In this document: positions 2,596 through 27,206 of the stretch, in pieces
Layout of the letters: each line of letters begins with the position of its first letter
Numbering within the stretch: position 1 is the first letter of the stretch
IMG/VR virus record: IMGVR_UViG_2563366822_000012
Span: 1 to 27,206 of that record
Strand: one strand, 5' to 3'
DNA: 27,206 nt
From: a virus
Lineage: Duplodnaviria > Heunggongvirae > Uroviricota > Caudoviricetes
The notes under the pieces: model-generated
Databases searched by the model: none
The model's input: the letters and a program-made list of their open reading frames with translations, nothing else
Told to the model about the DNA's origin: nothing
Translations under genes and position numbers: made by a program

Positions 2596-3183
2596 ATGTT
2601 GGTAGATAAGATATTGCACAAAACTGGATTATTTGACTTTCTGGACAAAATTTTAATAACCCGTCCTTTCGCTATTGTATCCAATAACTGCTGGGGCTAT
2701 AGACTATATAAAAATATAGGGCTTGAATATAATACTCCCTTTATCGGCCTGTACATCACAGCATCTGATTTTGTTGAAATGTGTATTAATTTGGAGCATT
2801 TTTTATCAAGAGACATTGTTGAAAGCGATTTCATTAATACAGAGCATAATTTCCCCGTTGCATTTGTGGATGGAGTAAAAATATACTTTATGCATTATAA
2901 CTCAAGGGCAGAAGCCATGGATAAATGGAATAGAAGAATAAAAAGACTTCAATCTTTTATATCATCACATGGCCTTGATAGAGTTGTTTTTAAAATGTGT
3001 GATAGAGATGGAAGTTACATGGATGTAATGAAATTTAATGAGTTAAAAATAAAAAGAACGATATCTTTCACCTCGAAAGAAAACAAAGGACTCGTTGAGA
3101 GCAATGGTAATATTTACCCGGGAGATGTATTGTTCAACTTCAGACACAGATATTATCTCAAGTATATCAAAACATTTAGATAA
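2596..3183 (+). CDS. Hypothetical cytoplasmic protein, 195 aa; low-GC cargo gene; possible DUF1919-like polysaccharide-modification protein (tentative)
   Basis: ATG 2596 preceded by AAGGA about 9 nt upstream. Visibly AT-rich compared with neighbours, with an AT-rich upstream region 2460-2590. N-terminal motif FAIVSNNCWGYRLY resembles what I recall as the DUF1919 signature. No transmembrane segments. Confidence 0.7.
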   Translation: MLVDKILHKTGLFDFLDKILITRPFAIVSNNCWGYRLYKNIGLEYNTPFIGLYITASDFVEMCINLEHFLSRDIVESDFINTEHNFPVAFVDGVKIYFMHYNSRAEAMDKWNRRIKRLQSFISSHGLDRVVFKMCDRDGSYMDVMKFNELKIKRTISFTSKENKGLVESNGNIYPGDVLFNFRHRYYLKYIKTFR

Positions 3184-5271: not shown

Positions 5272-6320
5272 GAAATCGTCCCCAGAACCGCCAGCTCATT
5301 TTTTGCAATGGAGATATTGTCCGCCGGTGCAAGCAACTGATGGCTGTATTCCCCGTTCGCACCGGAAATCGCCTCACTGATACGCGACACCTTCAGTTCT
5401 CCCTGCGGATAACCATCACGCAGCAGGAACGAACGCAACTCGGCGGTGATGGCAGCCCGTATTTCCGGTGTGTCCGGCGTCACGCGGATATGAAAATCCA
5501 CTTTATGCGCCACCGGCCTGAATACATACAAATCAGAGCCTGCCACCGGGGCCAGTGGCTCAATGTGTTGTCTTGCCGCCGTTTCCGTTGATTCTTCCGG
5601 AATGGGATTAATCAGGTCACTGCTGGCAATCATCACACCGACAGTTCCCGTTCCCATCCAGTGACGGTATGTCCATGCGCGGGTAATGCCGGGCACTTCT
5701 TTAGCCCAGACGACATAGTCCCCGTCAGCCCCGCCCTGAGGCGTCCAGTAATACCGCTCAATGACGCGGGCGCGCCACGTTTCCAGCTCTTCAGTATCAA
5801 ATCCGCCTGTAAGGGTGTCAGCCACACCGGAAGACGGCAGACCATTCACCGGCGTGACCAGGATTAATGCCGTACCGTCGTCAGCGTTACCGACCGCACC
5901 TGCACTTGAGCAGGCGATCGGCACGCGCAGGACACCACCGGAGCTGGTTGCATCGTCAGTTGTCGTGTACTGCACCAGGTCATCGCGCTGAATAACACTC
6001 CCGGCGGTCACCTTCAGGCCATCGCTGACACCTTCCCAGCGCATATACCCGCTGGCAGCCGTGGCCCCCTTGCGCGGACACCGTTTCATCGCAGCATGTC
6101 GCGCCAGCCAGGACTCATCGCACAGGTCAGGCAGCATGTTCATTGCCAGATAATCGATGTAACCGTAAACCGTATGCAGCGCCGCCGCATACACCTTTGC
6201 CCGCACGTCTTCATCCATGCGCCGGAGCGTGTCGCTGACGTCCAGCCTGGCGAATAAATCGTTACGGAGCATACTGATATTTTCTGCCAGCGTCGGGCGC
6301 TGAAATTCACTGTCCGCCAT
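5262..6320 (-). CDS. Baseplate J-like protein (Mu gp47-like)
   Basis: 352-aa ORF in the conserved Mu-type baseplate order; overlaps neighbours by a few nt (translational coupling). Confidence 0.85.
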
Positions 6321-6735
6321 GCGTTATCGCACTCCACAGATCATCAAAAGAAATCATTACCGGTCCGTCACGACGCCAGAGAGTGATACTGTTACCCAGT
6401 TCATTAATCCCGGTGCGGCGGATATCCAGATCAATACGGGACACCACGCCATCATCAATCATCCATTGCAGGCATTCGCGGATATACCCCCTTACCGTCT
6501 GCACCAGCTGATTGGTCAGTTTGCTGCGCTGAAGCAGCCACAGTCGGGAGCCGTAACGGTCATTCTGTACCGCAGGCCAGGTATCCCCCCACCATCCCAT
6601 CGGGACGTCGGCGTTGTCATCAGGCTCCGCCCGCCGCCAGGTAAACAGGGAAATCACCACGGCGCGGGTCAGCGGATCCAGCGGTGCGCTGGCGCAGGTG
6701 CGTTTACCGTTCACCGTCAGCCACAGTTCCATCAT
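6307..6735 (-). CDS. Phage GP46-family baseplate protein (Mu gp46-like)
   Basis: 142-aa ORF between the spike gene and baseplate J; size and position as in Mu-like tails. Confidence 0.8.
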   Translation of the reverse strand: MMELWLTVNGKRTCASAPLDPLTRAVVISLFTWRRAEPDDNADVPMGWWGDTWPAVQNDRYGSRLWLLQRSKLTNQLVQTVRGYIRECLQWMIDDGVVSRIDLDIRRTGINELGNSITLWRRDGPVMISFDDLWSAITHGGQ

Positions 6736-19930: not shown

Positions 19931-21664
19931 TTAAAGCGAGCGGATCCCATAGGACTCAATGTGGTCGGACAGCGTGTCTTCTTTCTCATACAGCATGGCT
20001 CTGCCAACCGCCATAATCAGCGCAACTGCACCATCGATTTTGTTTTCCGCCTGCTCTTTGACGGGCTTCACCACATCATCGTTACCCGGAATGGTTTTGC
20101 CGACCACGTTGCCGATACACCAGGTCATGATGGGATTGCCATCATGATGAAAGCGCCCCGATTCAATTGCCGCTTCCAGCTCTTTCATCGGGTCGGACAT
20201 GTTGGTGTAGTTCTGAATGATAGTGATGGGGTTCAGGTCTTCATCAGCAAGGTCATGTGACAACCCGGTCGCCCCGAAGGGGTCGATGGGTGACTCACTG
20301 ACCGGGCTGATTTTGTTCGCCGCTTTGGCCTCCTCGAGGATGTAGCGATAATCCACCTCCGCACCATCGGTAACGGTCAAGACGCCCATTTCCACCCATT
20401 TCTGAAAGCGTTCGGCTGTCCGTCGATCTTCATTTTTCTCGACGCTGTACACCGTGTCATACGGTACCCAGAAACGCGGGGCCACACTGTAGTAATGCGT
20501 TTTACCGTCAATCTCGCGGGTATAAAGTCGCGCCATGCTGTTCATATCCAGCTTACGCGCCAGGTCAAAGGCCAGAATGCACGGCTGCCCCTCGAACTGC
20601 TCAAGGGTCAGTGATTTCTCCTCGCAGCTCTGCCAGCTCACCAGGTTGAAATACGCCGAACGCGCCGACACCCAGATATTGAGGTGTTTTGTTTTAAAGA
20701 CGTTTGCCAGACGGGCGTTATTTTTCGCACGCTGCTGCTGACTTAACAAAAATTCGCGATAAACCGACACGCCAATATTTGGATTGGCTTTTTCCAGCAC
20801 CTGCGGGTCGGTCCAGTCGTCACCTTCATCAACGGTATAGATGATCCCGAACAGTTCATCGTTGGGTACCGAACCGTTGAGCATCTCGATAACTTCCCGC
20901 CGCTTGTCGTAGCACGGCCCCTCAATGTTGTACCCGGCGGTGGTGATGGCCCACATCAGTGGCTGACGTCGCGCCCCCATCCCGGTAAGCATCGTGGTAT
21001 AAAGCGCATCGGTGGCGTGCTCGTGATATTCATCCACCACCGCACAGTGGGGTGATGAACCATCACCAGGGTTACCGATCAGCGGTTCAAACCGCGCGCC
21101 ATCCTCCGGACGGTTCATGTTTGAGGCGTTAACCTCAATCCCGAACGCTTCCGTCAGCATGGGTGTGCGTTTACACATCAGTCGCGCCGGGCGAAAGACT
21201 TCCCATGCCTGTTTCTCCGTCGTGGCACCGGAATACACTTCCGCGCCGAACTCGTTATCACAGGCAAAACAATACAGGGCAACACCGGCAGAGATTGCCG
21301 ATTTGCCGTTCTTACGGGGAATTTCGGTATACACCTCACGGAAGCGGCGCAGCCGGGAGCCTTTATTGACCCAGCCAAACGCGCAGCAGATCACAAAGAG
21401 CTGCCACGGCTCCAGCGTGATGGGCATCCGTTTAAATGCCCACTCACCCTTGGTGTGCGGCAACAGCTGAATAAATTTGGCGGCCCGTTCAGCCAGCTCC
21501 TTGTCGAAGCGGTAACGAAACGACTTACTTTTTTCCGCCATCAGGTCATCAAGATGGCGCTGGCAGGCCTGAATCACAAACTGGCAGGCCACAATCTTTC
21601 CGCGCACGACATCCCGGGCATACTGATTGGCAGCATTTACGTTGGGGTAAGATTTCCGGCTCAT
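19931..21664 (-). CDS. Terminase large subunit
   Basis: 577-aa ORF in canonical position after the small terminase and before the portal; ATG 21664. Confidence 0.92.
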
Positions 21665-22288: not shown

Positions 22289-22639
22289 TCACTTTAGCCG
22301 TTCACGGGCCGTCTTCGCCTTATGGCACGGCCAGCACAGGCTCTGCAGATTACTGTCTGCATCGGTGCCGCCATGCGCTTTAGGGATGATGTGGTCAACG
22401 GTTTTAGCTTCACGCACCACACCGGCACGCAGACATAACTGACACAGGCCGTTGTCACGTTTCAGCACACGCGCACGGATAACGTCCCACTTCGAACCGT
22501 AGCCGCGCTGATGACGGGATTGTCCTGGCTTGTATTGCTTCCAGCCTTCGCTTTTGTGGCTTTCGCAGTAGCCTGACGGGTCTGTCGTGGTATTACGGCA
22601 ACCTCGAGCACGGCAGGCTTTTGGGATTCGTGGCGGCAT
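22289..22639 (-). CDS. HNH endonuclease (terminase-associated, HK97 gp74-like)
   Basis: 116-aa ORF with Cys-x2-Cys pairs and …DHIIPKAHGGTDADSNLQSLCWPCH…; located immediately upstream of the small terminase gene. Confidence 0.85.
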   Translation of the reverse strand: MPPRIPKACRARGCRNTTTDPSGYCESHKSEGWKQYKPGQSRHQRGYGSKWDVIRARVLKRDNGLCQLCLRAGVVREAKTVDHIIPKAHGGTDADSNLQSLCWPCHKAKTARERLK

Positions 22640-23051: not shown

Positions 23052-23570
23052 TCACTTTGGCAGTCCGGGGATCGATATTTGCGCCTGCTGCTCAAGCCTT
23101 TCGATTCTTGCTATGAGTTGCGGTTTTTTGATCCTGCCCCAGCGGTTCAGCAAGCGTCCTGACATACTGGCAACATCCTTTTCCTTCATGAACTCCAGCA
23201 TTAACTCGTTGTGCTCTCTTTGGTATGAGTGAGCCAACTCCATCAGCCTGTCACGCATCCAATTAAATGCTTTGATAAACGCCTCTTTGATGGCGGCAGC
23301 TTTTTTGCCGGTAAACGACATGATGATGTACATCGCGCCGTCTTTGGAAATTTCATATTCAACATACTGATTACCCTTGTGTTCATAGGTAACCCGCGAA
23401 AAGTTGCTGGTTAGAAATTCATCCGAACAGTCTAGCTTTTCGATTTTCTGAATGATGTGGTGATGCTGCTTGTCGAAGTAAGCTGCTACCTTGCGGGAGG
23501 TTGTGATCACGCGATCACCAGAAACAACCACCATGTCCCGGAAATCGAGATTAGCCAATTGATGATTCAT
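23052..23570 (-). CDS. Rha-family phage regulatory protein
   Basis: ORF track gives 23052..23783; the internal ATG at 23570 (MNHQLANLDFRDMVVVSGDRVITTSRKVAAYFDKQHHHIIQKIEKL…) matches the usual Rha N-terminus. The upstream 71 codons overlap a structured intergenic region and are probably not translated. Confidence 0.75.
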   Translation of the reverse strand: MNHQLANLDFRDMVVVSGDRVITTSRKVAAYFDKQHHHIIQKIEKLDCSDEFLTSNFSRVTYEHKGNQYVEYEISKDGAMYIIMSFTGKKAAAIKEAFIKAFNWMRDRLMELAHSYQREHNELMLEFMKEKDVASMSGRLLNRWGRIKKPQLIARIERLEQQAQISIPGLPK

Positions 23571-23710
23571 AGCGTCTTTACCTTTTAGAAAGTGAGCCTG
23601 TCTCACAGAAAAGCCGCCCGAGAGAGGTCGCCACCTATAACGGCTTTTCTCAGGCTCGCTTACTGAAAGGCTCTCGTTAATATGCGCGTGAGATGCGCTG
23701 TGAAATTCAG

Positions 23711-23737
23711 ATATAAAAAAGCCCCGCACCGCGAGGC
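23711..23737 (-). terminator. Putative intrinsic terminator downstream of the lysis cassette
   Basis: Minus-strand GCCTCGCGGTGCGGGGC (imperfect hairpin) followed by TTTTTTAT, about 35 nt after the Rz stop. Confidence 0.4.
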
Positions 23738-23770
23738 TCATTAAATTGACTTTGTGATTTGCAAAAAAAT

Positions 23771-24232
23771 TTATTTCAGGCATTGCGTCCTGATGTATTC
23801 CTGCAGGTAGTTAACCTGCGCGGTTATCCTGTCGATTCCGCTTCGTAGACGGTAATAATTGAGTTCAGCATCTGCTGTAAGTCTTGGGCTTTCTCCATCG
23901 CCCATGCTGCTGGCTCCGGTCGTTGACTTTGCACAGGTGGCGGCGACTTGCAGGCGCTTACGCCCAGCAGAAACATCAGCACGGAGACTTTCGATAGTCG
24001 CGTTAGCATCAGCAAGCTCCTTTGTATATCTGGCATCGAGTTCTGCTACGTCACGTTGACGCTTCTGCATATCAGAGATCGTCGCCATAGCCGAATCTAA
24101 TGCCATAGCGTTTTCGTCGCGCTGTTTTTTGTATTCAATGGCTTTATTGTGGTAATGATTAGCTGACCAGACGAGAGAACCGAATAAAGTCAGGAGAAAA
24201 GCAGAAATAACCAGCTTATAGCGAAGTTTCAT
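23771..24232 (-). CDS. Rz: Rz i-spanin (inner-membrane spanin subunit)
   Basis: ORF track starts at TTG 24265; ATG 24232 gives [27 protein letters not shown]…, an N-terminal membrane anchor followed by a coiled-coil region, laid out like lambda Rz; follows R. Confidence 0.85.
   Translation of the reverse strand: MKLRYKLVISAFLLTLFGSLVWSANHYHNKAIEYKKQRDENAMALDSAMATISDMQKRQRDVAELDARYTKELADANATIESLRADVSAGRKRLQVAATCAKSTTGASSMGDGESPRLTADAELNYYRLRSGIDRITAQVNYLQEYIRTQCLK
23824..24009 (-). CDS. Rz1: Rz1 o-spanin lipoprotein, embedded in the +1 frame of Rz
   Basis: ATG 24009 gives MLTRLSKVSVLMFLLGVSAC-KSPPPVQSQRPEPAAW…: signal peptide with lipobox-like LGVSAC, then a proline-rich mature region. Entirely nested within Rz, as in lambda. 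Confidence 0.65.
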   Translation of the reverse strand: MLTRLSKVSVLMFLLGVSACKSPPPVQSQRPEPAAWAMEKAQDLQQMLNSIITVYEAESTG

Positions 24233-24692
24233 TAACCACCCCGCCAGCTTCTTTGAATTTGGCAATCAGACTATCGATCTTGTGTTCATACTGACCGTAG
24301 CCAGCACCGGGCAATGAAGCCCAAATATTGCTGCAACGATCAATAGCCTGACGAATATCACCGCGATCAATCATCGGCAAAGCGCCACGTTCCTTAATCT
24401 GCTGCAGCGCAACAGCGTCCTGGCTTTTGGGAGAGAAGTCTTTCAGGCCAAGCTGCTTACGATAGGCATCCCACCAACGGGAAAGAAGCTGATAGCGACC
24501 GGCTGCTGTTGATTTGAGTTTGGGGTTTAGCGTGACAAGTTTGCGAGGGTGATCGGAGTAATCAGTGAATAGTTCTCCTCCTACAATGACGTCATAACCA
24601 TGATTTCTGGTTTTCTGCCGTCCGTTATCAGTTCCCTCTGACCATGCCAGCATATCGAGGAACGCCTTACGTTGATTATTGATTTCCACCAT
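24216..24692 (-). CDS. R: Endolysin, lambda R-type lytic transglycosylase
   Basis: 158-aa ORF; [39 protein letters not shown]… is near-identical to my memory of lambda R over most of its length. Confidence 0.93.
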
Positions 24693-24999
24693 CTTCTACT
24701 CCGGCTTTTTTAGCAGCGAAGCGTTTGATAAGCGAACCAATCGAGTCAGTACCGATGTAGCCGATGAACACGCTCGTTATATAAGCGAGATTGCTACTTA
24801 GTCCGGCGAGGTCGAGAAGATCACGAATGAACCAGGCGATAATGGCGCACATCGTTGCGTCGATTACTGTTTTTGTAAACGCACCGCCATTATATCTGCC
24901 GCGAAGGTACGCCATTGCAAACGCAAGGATTGCCCCGATGCCTTGTTCCTTTGCCGCGAGAATGGCGGCTAACAGGTCATTTTTTTCTGGCATCTTCAT
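24676..24999 (-). CDS. S: Holin/antiholin, lambda S-type class I holin with dual start motif
   Basis: 107-aa ORF beginning MKMPEK… (Met1 and Met3 give the S107/S105 pair as in lambda); near-identical to lambda S from memory; ATGA overlap with R. Confidence 0.93.
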
Positions 25000-25395
25000 G
25001 TCTTACCCCCAATAAGGGGATTTGCTCTATTTAATTAGGAATAAGGTCGATTACTGATAGAACAAATCCAGGCTACTGTGTTTAGTAATCAGATTTGTTC
25101 GTGACCGATATGCACGGGCAAAACGGCAGGAGGTTGTTAGCGCGACCTCCTGCCACCCGCTTTCACGAAGGTCATGTGTAGAAGGCCGCAGCATAACTAT
25201 CACTGATGAATTCAGGATAGCCAGTGGCTACGGCTCAGTTTGGGTTGTGCTGTTGCTGGGCGGCGATGACGCCTGTACGCATTTGGTGATCCGGTTCTGC
25301 TTCCGGCATTCGCTTAATTCAGCACAACGGAAAGAGCACTCGGTGCATTTAAGACAAGCTCCATAAGGGAGAATGCTCTTACCTGTTACACAGAT

Positions 25396-25453
25396 ATAAA
25401 AAATCCCGAAACCGTTATGCAGGCTCTAACTATTACCTGCGAACTGTTTCGGG
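25396..25453 (-). terminator. tR'-like intrinsic terminator ending the short PR' transcript (6S RNA-like)
   Basis: Minus-strand CCCGAAAC…(GCAGG…CCTGC)…GTTTCGGG extended hairpin followed by ATTTTTTAT; matches the lambda tR' region from memory. Confidence 0.6.
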
Positions 25454-25559
25454 ATTGCATTTTACAGACCTCTCAGCCTGCGATGGTTGGAGTTCCAGAC
25501 GATACGTCGAAGTGACCAACTAGGCGGAATCGGTAGTAAGCGCCGCCTCTTTTCATCTC

Positions 25560-25625
25560 ACTACCACAACGAGCGAATTAACCCATCGTTGGGTCAAATT
25601 TACCCAACTTTATTCAAAAAGTCAA
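25560..25625 (-). promoter_or_regulatory. Late promoter PR' (-35 TTGACT, -10 TAAATT, 17-bp spacer) with adjacent qut site for Q loading
   Basis: Minus-strand TTGACT (plus 25620-25625) and TAAATT (plus 25597-25602); the downstream segment TTGACCCAACGATGGGTTAATTCGCTCGTTGTGGTAG matches lambda PR'/qut from memory with one mismatch. Confidence 0.6.
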
Positions 25626-25667
25626 TATCATGCCGTTAATATGTTGCCATCCGTGGCAATCATGCTG

Positions 25668-26291
25668 CTAACGTGTGACCGCATTCAAAATGTTGTCTGC
25701 GATTGACTCTTCTTTGTGGCATTGCACCACCAGAGCGTCATACAGCGGCTTAACAGTGCGTGACCAGGTGGGTTGAGTAAGGTTTGGGATTAGCATCGTT
25801 ACAGCGCGATATGCGGCGCTTGCTGGCATTCTTGAATAGCCGACACCTTTGCATCTTCCGCATTCTTTCTCAACAACTCTCCCCCACTGCTCTGTTTTGG
25901 CAATATCAACCGCCCGACCTGTACCGTGGCAATCTCTGCATCTTGCGCCCGGAGTCGCGGCACTACGGCAATAATCAGCATAAGCGAATGTTGCGAGCAC
26001 TTGCAGTACCTTTGCCTTAGTATTTCCTTCGAGCTTTGCCACACCACGGTATTTCCCCGATACCTTGTGTGCAAATTGCATCAGATAGTTGATAGCCTTT
26101 TGTTTGTCGTTCTGGCTGAGTTCGTGCTTACCACAGAATGCAGCCATTCCGAATCCGGCTTGTGATTGCGCCATCCCCATAGCAGCCATCACATCAGTAC
26201 CGGAAAGAGAGTCAGAAGCCGTAGCCCGTGGTGAGTCGCTCATCATCGGGCTTTTTGGCGAATGAAATTTAGCTACGTTTTCGAGTCTCAT
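25668..26291 (-). CDS. Q: Late-gene antiterminator Q (lambda-type)
   Basis: 207-aa [34 protein letters not shown]… with the zinc-binding CRDCHGTGR…CGRCKG motif; near-identical to lambda Q from memory. Confidence 0.93.
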
Positions 26292-26953
26292 GCGCCTTCT
26301 CCCTGTACCTGAATCAATGTGAGATTTCCGCAGAACACTGCGCCGGTATCGATATACATCTGGTTGGCAAACTTGAGTGGTTTCACTGCTGGCGTATGAC
26401 CAAAGATGAACGCGTCCGCGCCTTTAATTTCTTTCACGATCCCGTCTTGTGAGTTGCTGATTCGTTCGCGGTTCCAGATTACCTGCTGATGATCAACTGG
26501 CTTTCCAAACTCGTATTCGTCACAAGGATAATCGGCGTGGCAGATGACATATTTTTTATCTTTGCTCACCAGTTCGATGATTAACGGAAGTTCATCTGCT
26601 TTATGGGAAAGAGCTTTAGCCAGAATTTCTTTGTCGTAATCGAGATTAAAGAACCAGCCACCGCCATTAAGTAGCCAGTGATTGACGTTTCCACGCTCTG
26701 ATAAGCCATCAATCATCATTTGCTCATGGTTTCCACGTACAGCTCTGAACCAGGGGAATGTGATTAATTCCAGGCATTCGACGTTCTCTGCACCGCGATC
26801 GACCAAATCGCCAACCGAGATAAGCAGGTCTTTTTGGGTGTCGAATCCAATCGTATCCAGTTTGTTCATCAGGTTCGTGTAACATCCGTGCAGGTCGCCA
26901 ACTACCCAAATATTTCGGTATTTGCTGCCATCAATTCTTTCGTAATAGCGCAT
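26288..26953 (-). CDS. Serine/threonine protein phosphatase (lambda-PPase / NinI-type metallophosphatase), 221 aa
   Basis: ORF track starts at GTG 27025; ATG 26953 has a GGAG Shine-Dalgarno and gives [25 protein letters not shown]…, with metallophosphatase motifs GDLHG, GDLVDRG, GNHE; ATGA overlap with Q. Confidence 0.9.
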
Positions 26954-26999
26954 CTCTTTCACTCCATCCGCGATGAACCATGAGAACGTCGTTGACGAT

Positions 27000-27206
27000 T
27001 GAAGTGGCACACTGAATTTGGCCACCTGAACAGAGGTGATATGCTCACCTCAGAACAACACAGGTGCTCCAATGAAAAAAAGAAATTTCAGCGCAGAGTT
27101 TAAACGCGAATCCGCTCAACTGGTTGTTGACCAGAACTACACGGTGGCAGATGCCGCCAAAGCTATGGATGTTGGCCTTTCCACAATGACAAGATGGGTC
27201 AAACAA
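27000..27206 (+). mobile_element. Left end of an IS3-family insertion sequence (IS911-like), truncated by the window edge
   Basis: Begins TGAAGTGGCACACTGAATTTGGCCACC (IS3-family ends are TG…CA); 72 nt inside, an ORF starts whose translation matches IS911 OrfA from memory. Confidence 0.65.
27072..27206 (+). CDS. IS3-family transposase OrfA (helix-turn-helix N-terminal part), partial at window end
   Basis: ATG 27072; [45 protein letters not shown]… runs off the window. Confidence 0.65.

Follow-up and report, generated by a model that had tools for sequence, protein, structure and literature searches.

An IS911 end within ninH of a mosaic argW prophage, probably marking a deletion of the phage early region

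The evidence makes it very probable that the last 207 nt of the window (the whole stretch of 27,206 nt that was analysed) are the left end of an IS911 copy lying in the ninH gene of a mosaic argW-integrated prophage, that a single IS911 forms a deletion junction there, and that the prophage, about 28 kb long, is defective. From the window it had been suggested that part of the replication or immunity region might be missing. This was supported by a draft scaffold, in which the torI/attR end of the prophage follows straight on from the IS. Most likely the whole early region, replication and immunity genes included, has been lost, as read from that one draft scaffold, in which the interior of the IS is given as N.

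IS911, first isolated from Shigella dysenteriae, is a 1.25-kb element of the IS3 family (IS3 group) that moves by copy-out/paste-in transposition. The copy annotated as 'insertion sequence:IS911' in Shigella phage Sf6 (AF547987) was used as the reference, and membership was judged by nucleotide identity of at least 95% to this reference and by imperfect terminal inverted repeats of about 36 bp running from 5'-TG to CA-3'. On direct reading of 25800-27206, the tail of the window from position 27000 begins TGAAGTGGCACACTG / TGAAGTGGCACACTGAATTTGGCCACC. The stretch 27000-27206 (+ strand), which starts where phage homology stops at 26999 and whose remainder lies past the contig end, was identical to the Sf6 element at 205 of 207 positions; identity to a copy of ISEc52 was only 92%. 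Both this left end and the right end described below exceeded the identity threshold. The left inverted repeat (IRL), TGAAGTGGCACACTGAATTTGGCCACCTGAACAGAG, occupies 27000-27035 (+ strand) and opens TGAAGTGGCAC at 27000, with the 5'-TG of IS911 terminal inverted repeats. It shares the blocks TGAAGTGG, TGGCCACC and AGAG with the right inverted repeat (IRR) found in the scaffold, so that the imperfect pair of about 36 bp, 5'-TG to CA-3', was present. When the 207 nt were compared by megablast with complete E. coli genomes, IS copies were returned at E = 2e-103, with matches in 4203 of the 5426 genomes, and many of these genomes carried 100% identical copies in unrelated chromosomal and plasmid contexts. 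One such identical copy is itself split by IS30.

Past the IRL and the promoter/leader region, the transposase gene orfA begins at 27072 and its first 45 codons, the helix-turn-helix DNA-binding part, are visible (27072-27206, + strand) before the contig end cuts it. Its ATG (27072-27074) is preceded by an AGGTG Shine-Dalgarno sequence at 27062-27066 and by an upstream in-frame stop at 27027-27029. The N-terminal helix-turn-helix characteristic of IS911 OrfA was recovered as Pfam HTH_Tnp_1 (PF01527; E = 6e-8, 33.2 bits against a cut-off of 24.1), and 44 of the 45 residues were identical to those of Sf6 IS911 OrfA, the sole substitution being N22 for K22. The start at 27072 that had been proposed for OrfA was thus borne out by reading, by domain search and by alignment. 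In IS911 a programmed -1 frameshift at an A6G motif yields OrfAB, which carries the DDE (rve) catalytic domain. The frameshift site and the DDE domain of the present copy fall in a run of N beyond the end of the contig.

An exact look-up of the NinI protein led to a 4.67-Mb scaffold, KB732916.1, of the draft assembly GCA_000351925.1 (locus L003), and the last 10.9 kb of the window were identical to the reverse complement of this scaffold. Window base 27206 is followed directly by 680 N (L003 9068-9747). The window is a contig broken inside a repeated IS; it stops within IS911 because the draft assembly broke in the repeat. Rightward extension, which had been named as a check, did reveal the other IS end past the 680 N: 173 nt, of which 171 were identical to the right end of Sf6 IS911, finishing ...GGCCAGTTTTTGTTGACCACTTCA, with the IRR running inward from L003 8894. 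The complement of this terminus agreed at 36 of 36 positions with the published IS911 IRR oligonucleotide TGAAGTGGTCAACAAAAACTGGCCACCGAGTTAGAG (PMC2909936). The visible IS ends total 380 nt and are about 99% identical to Sf6 IS911. In the scaffold the distance from IRL to IRR is 1,061 bp, including the estimated gap, and the Sf6 copy spans 1,249 bp. A single IS911 would need about 870 nt of missing sequence, so that the run of 680 N is 190 nt short and of the same order.

The copy resembles the IS911 reference in its terminal sequence, its IRL/IRR pair, the N-terminus of OrfA and the distance from IRL to the orfA ATG. It differs from the Sf6 copy in the N22 residue, in 2 + 2 nucleotides at the two ends and in having no 3-bp target duplication in the scaffold. 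At about 99% identity, the stretch 27000-27206 is by its sequence IS911 itself, and the original prediction of an IS3-family, IS911-like element can be made that much more specific on the strength of the Sf6 match and of the complete agreement with the IRR oligonucleotide.

The left breakpoint was located by megablast of 26288-27206 against 50,697 phage records. Homology to lambda, HK544, HK446, Sf101, mEp234 and others (97-98%, query 1-712) ended exactly at 26999, and the annotated features under these matches were Q, ninI and NinH. The same limit, 26999, was obtained for the phage part with the 5,426 complete E. coli genomes (query 1-400 of 26600-27206). On the minus strand, 26931-26999 holds the last 22 codons and stop of ninH, overlapping the start of ninI by 23 nt, and when translated it gives exactly residues 47-68 of NinH from E. 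coli EN-1077, where the protein is intact at 68 aa. Intact ninH reads ...GTTGACGAT followed by GGCGTGCAT, with GACGAT before the breakpoint; the window reads ...GTTGACGAT followed by TGAAGTGG. As judged from these alignments, IS911 interrupts ninH after codon 46 of 68. The IS had been placed immediately upstream of ninI. Adjacency held, with 46 bases (26954-26999) between the IS tip and the ATG, and the site can be given more exactly: those 46 bases are no intergenic spacer, because NinH is annotated under the phage matches there, and the IS sits inside ninH.

The ninI gene itself (Ser/Thr phosphatase, 221 aa, Pfam Metallophos; 26288-26953, minus strand) is intact, with its true start at ATG 26953 and about 97% nucleotide identity to lambda nin221. 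The open reading frame list gives a longer form, 26288-27025, of 245 aa with a GTG start, which extends 26 nt into the IS. The exact 221-aa product was found on other contigs, downstream of an intact ninH, and the ATG-26953 form is annotated in all of the matched phages. The extension from GTG 27025 is therefore an artefact, as had been supposed from the window. Q (25668-26291, minus strand; 207 aa; Pfam Antiterm, E = 1e-57; lambda Q under the match) is intact as well and appears to be severed from its normal upstream early-operon (nin-region) DNA. The IS911 is transcribed opposite to the phage nin-Q operon. A promoter scan of 24900-27206 gave no sigma-70-like site between the IS tip and Q; the sole promoter-like site in that interval lies at 25625-25597 (minus strand), downstream of Q, where pR' is expected. 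A terminator-like hairpin was predicted at 25588-25608 (+ strand), overlapping this site, at the place where pR'/tR' would be expected. The interval between Q and S (25000-25667) is without tRNA genes; Sf6, EN-1077 and the E. coli AB66 prophage have tRNA-Asn and tRNA-Thr there.

On the other side of the IS the scaffold reads CCACTTCA followed directly by GTAACCAATATTCGAATTGAAG, so that the flank begins GTAACC. The triplets bordering the element are GAT on the left and GTA on the right (scaffold); the target-site duplication that was to be looked for around the IS is absent. In the Sf6 copy, used as a control, GTT was found on both sides. Because no target duplication is present, the site is read as a junction left by deletion or recombination, not as a simple insertion; the missing duplication reflects the history of this copy (deletion or recombination) and says nothing about the family to which it belongs. 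The right flank comprises the last 48 nt of a gene of 55 aa, then a gene of 114 aa, then torI (excisionase). In prophages integrated at argW, the DNA that it matched, at 97-98.5%, forms the far end of the early-left operon. From the 3' end of the small early-left gene at the junction, the torI start codon is reached 542 bp downstream. The torI gene (66 aa, L003 8150-8350) corresponds to the annotated torI under the matches in complete genomes, and chromosomal cscB, cscK, cscA, cscR, dsdX' and dsdA follow the right end of the prophage in the scaffold.

An outward hybrid promoter, composed of the -35 element TTGACC in the IRR, a 17-nt spacer and TCGAAT, was considered for the 114-aa gene and torI and was rejected for its poor -10 element (4 of 6 positions, no A at position 2).

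The extent of the probable loss was gauged from intact argW prophages. In that of PM4-5, ninH lies at 6299-6487 and the homologue of the right flank starts at 20001. The roughly 13.5 kb between them carry rusA, ninF/X/E/B, a DnaB-type helicase, a replication protein, cII, cro, a LexA-family repressor, RecT and ea genes. In the EN-1077 prophage, whose ninI-ninH segment is 99.8% identical to window 26600-26999 (the 400 bp before the breakpoint), the homologue of the breakpoint lies at 20400 and torI at 32709; the corresponding span is about 11.8 kb and holds ninG/F/E, a Dam methylase, ninB, P, O, cII, cro, cI, N, recombination genes and ea genes. In the preferred reading, a copy of IS911 lies within the dispensable gene ninH of the mosaic argW prophage. 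As the scaffold is joined, a single IS911 would now bridge ninH' to the 3' end of the small early-left gene with no target duplication, and some 12-14 kb would have been lost, comprising nin, replication (O/P-type), immunity (cI/cro/cII/N) and recombination genes. The deletion could have arisen if two IS911 copies in direct orientation, the first in ninH and the second in the 55-aa gene, underwent homologous recombination. It could equally be an IS-adjacent deletion for which the transposase, through the tandem-dimer pathway, or an excision enhancer of the IEE type was responsible; both can produce such deletions with IS3-family elements. The two routes are equally expected from the flanks, which do not discriminate between them.

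The alternative that survives best, though it is unlikely, is a simple insertion of IS911 in ninH with the early region still to its right, the scaffold join being wrong or the gap hiding about 14 kb and a second IS911. Such an arrangement is accommodated by a scaffold in which the IS interior is N only and by the routine breaking of contigs at IS copies, and the functional phage Sf6 tolerates IS911 in the neighbouring ninG (PMC5630979). It is countered by the gap, a specific estimate of 680 N that is near the 870 nt needed for one IS, and by the scaffold itself, in which the unique early-region contigs should sit between the IS ends and none were placed there. A simple insertion in ninH with a 3-bp duplication predicts GATGGCGTGCAT after the IRR, where GTAACC... 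is present instead. It is very improbable that IS911 copies recombined to give an inversion or another rearrangement by which the early region was moved elsewhere in the chromosome. The missing target duplication also fits inter-IS recombination in general, but the right flank is native in order and orientation relative to the late region and to csc-dsdA, and its order is collinear with the torI-attR-csc end in the intact prophages of PM4-5 and EN-1077. Inversion was rejected since both flanks hold their native orientation and are collinear with intact prophages, a signature of deletion between direct repeats. The notion that no IS is present at all, the OrfA-like frame belonging to some longer gene of phage or host and the TGAAGTGG terminus being a chance resemblance, has a negligible probability and found no support in 27000-27206, given the 99% identity to annotated IS911 across all 207 nt, the ubiquitous E. 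coli copies (100% identical in unrelated chromosome and plasmid contexts), the in-frame stop upstream of OrfA, and the matching IRR in the scaffold with its published counterpart.

At the left end of the window, a yfdC-like formate/nitrite-transporter gene (1-933) occupies the chromosome/prophage boundary region. It is followed by argW, tRNA-Arg(CCT), the integration site (1009-1083, + strand; ARAGORN; Rfam tRNA, 63 bits), which was the only match in an Rfam scan of the whole window. The 16-nt attL core CTGCAGGGGACACCAT (1069-1084, + strand) is identical to the core of KplE1 (PMC2951348), and 15 of the 16 nt are found again beyond torI, at L003 8076-8062 (attR). A tyrosine integrase in the IntS position beside argW (1209-2402, + strand; Pfam Arm-DNA-bind_3, Phage_int_M and Phage_integrase) completes a KplE1-type module, with argW, a duplicated core, int by attL and torI by attR all in place. 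Two pieces of the 3' part of argW that are contiguous in the tRNA gene, TTGCAGGTTCGATTCC (1054-1069) and CTGCAGGGGACACCA (1069-1083), lie about 300 bp apart, on either side of the torI coding sequence, at the right end of the prophage (L003 8385-8370 and 8076-8062). The T-arm match of 16 nt, close before torI, may be what is left of an old att site or may belong to attP.

Between the integrase and the tail-fibre genes lies an ORF of 195 aa with a DUF1919 domain (2596-3183, + strand), a position that in the Shigella Sf phages presumably holds serotype-conversion or moron genes. The virion module (3282-23572) is about 97% identical to those of SfII, SfI, SfIV, SfV and vB_EcoM-689R6, and contains small and large terminase, portal, S78 protease, HK97-type capsid, sheath, tube, tape measure and Mu-type baseplate genes, with an HNH endonuclease at 22289-22639. 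A Rha/ORF11CD3-domain gene (243 aa, 23052-23783, minus strand) lies between Rz and the HNH/terminase genes, and an Rz1-like lipoprotein ORF (23824-24036, minus strand) is embedded in Rz (23771-24265). The order in the scaffold is attL, int, DUF1919, tail and head module, HNH and terminase, Rha-like, Rz, R, S, Q, ninI, ninH', IS911, 114-aa gene, torI, attR, and the scaffolded prophage totals about 28 kb. By gene content it is a clear mosaic in which a virion of the SfII/SfV myovirus type, a lambda-type Q/S/R/Rz set and a KplE1-type intS/torI module can be recognized.

The prophage should be non-inducible and defective because, on the scaffold, it would be without a repressor, replication genes and early promoters. 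Q and ninI would remain as an orphan pair with no recognizable promoter, beside a complete-looking virion and lysis module. Since int, torI and both att cores are kept, the prophage may still excise, by analogy with KplE1.

A further proposal, which must be considered very improbable, is that the IS911-bounded loss of early genes was more than decay and gave rise to a domesticated, stable module that keeps int, xis, a complete myovirus virion, lysis genes, Q and pR' with no repressor or replication genes, and that IS911 may prefer this site and orientation in the nin region. Among argW-integrating phages IS911 is placed in ninG in Sf6 and in ninH here, with the IRL towards Q in both. Were the proposal true, a superinfecting lambdoid phage or a prophage with compatible Q or early transcription could activate the module in trans, and the module would be a producer of helper-dependent particles or tailocins.

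A close known parallel is Sf6, in which IS911 disrupts ninG (gene 54) of the nin region and is lost by 1.2-4.0-kb deletions under selection; that insertion has been called unique (PMC5630979). The two loci share the same IS, a position in the nin region just before ninI-Q and one gene apart, the IRL facing Q and the transposase running opposite to the operon, and both belong to an argW-integrating phage family with a torI-type xis (PMC5630979). They differ in that the Sf6 insertion is clean, with a GTT duplication, in a viable phage, whereas here ninH is hit, no duplication is seen and the far end of the early-left operon lies beyond the IS. The defective E. coli K-12 prophage KplE1 (CPS-53), which has the 16-nt argW core CTGCAGGGGACACCAT and still excises as a 10.2-kb remnant (PMC2951348), is similar in its argW site and core, in an integrase by argW with torI at the opposite end, and in being a remnant without the repressor region; unlike KplE1 at 10.2 kb, the present prophage of about 28 kb has kept a full-looking SfII-type virion module, lysis genes and Q.

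A comparable arrangement was found in a prophage of E. coli AB66 (NZ_OZ547461), where an IS3-family element related to IS911 adjoins a truncated nin gene and the replication and immunity genes are gone. There (L002 4236-7852) ISEc52 adjoins truncated ninG on one side, and on the other the element leads straight into an early-left gene, xis and int. AB66 differs from the present case in its element (ISEc52, 92% over 207 nt), in being another prophage at a site next to ybhC, and in its breakpoint in ninG. The ninI homologue of this lambdoid prophage is frameshifted.

For annotation, the phosphatase start should be moved from GTG 27025 to ATG 26953, the 46 bases upstream should be labelled as a ninH remnant, and the prophage should be called defective, with the early region absent as per the scaffold. 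After Sf6, the locus gives a second naturally occurring case of IS911 within the nin region of a lambdoid phage that integrates at argW. Both the element and the kind of consequence are known, current understanding is unchallenged, and the value of the finding is mainly annotational.

The IS911 junction event is strain- or lineage-specific: neither the left nor the right junction was found by exact-match scans of GTDB species representatives and metagenome contigs, and megablast of either junction against the 5426 complete E. coli genomes returned no genome with the same junction. One E. coli match with 99% coverage (NZ_OW968277) was rejected, as it consists of two pieces over 910 bp and represents ISEc52 at a different nearby site. 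In that genome (837309-838218) ISEc52 lies in an ea/DUF551 region, close to a homologue of the 55-aa gene of the right junction, a hint that IS3-family elements land recurrently at this end of the early-left operon too.
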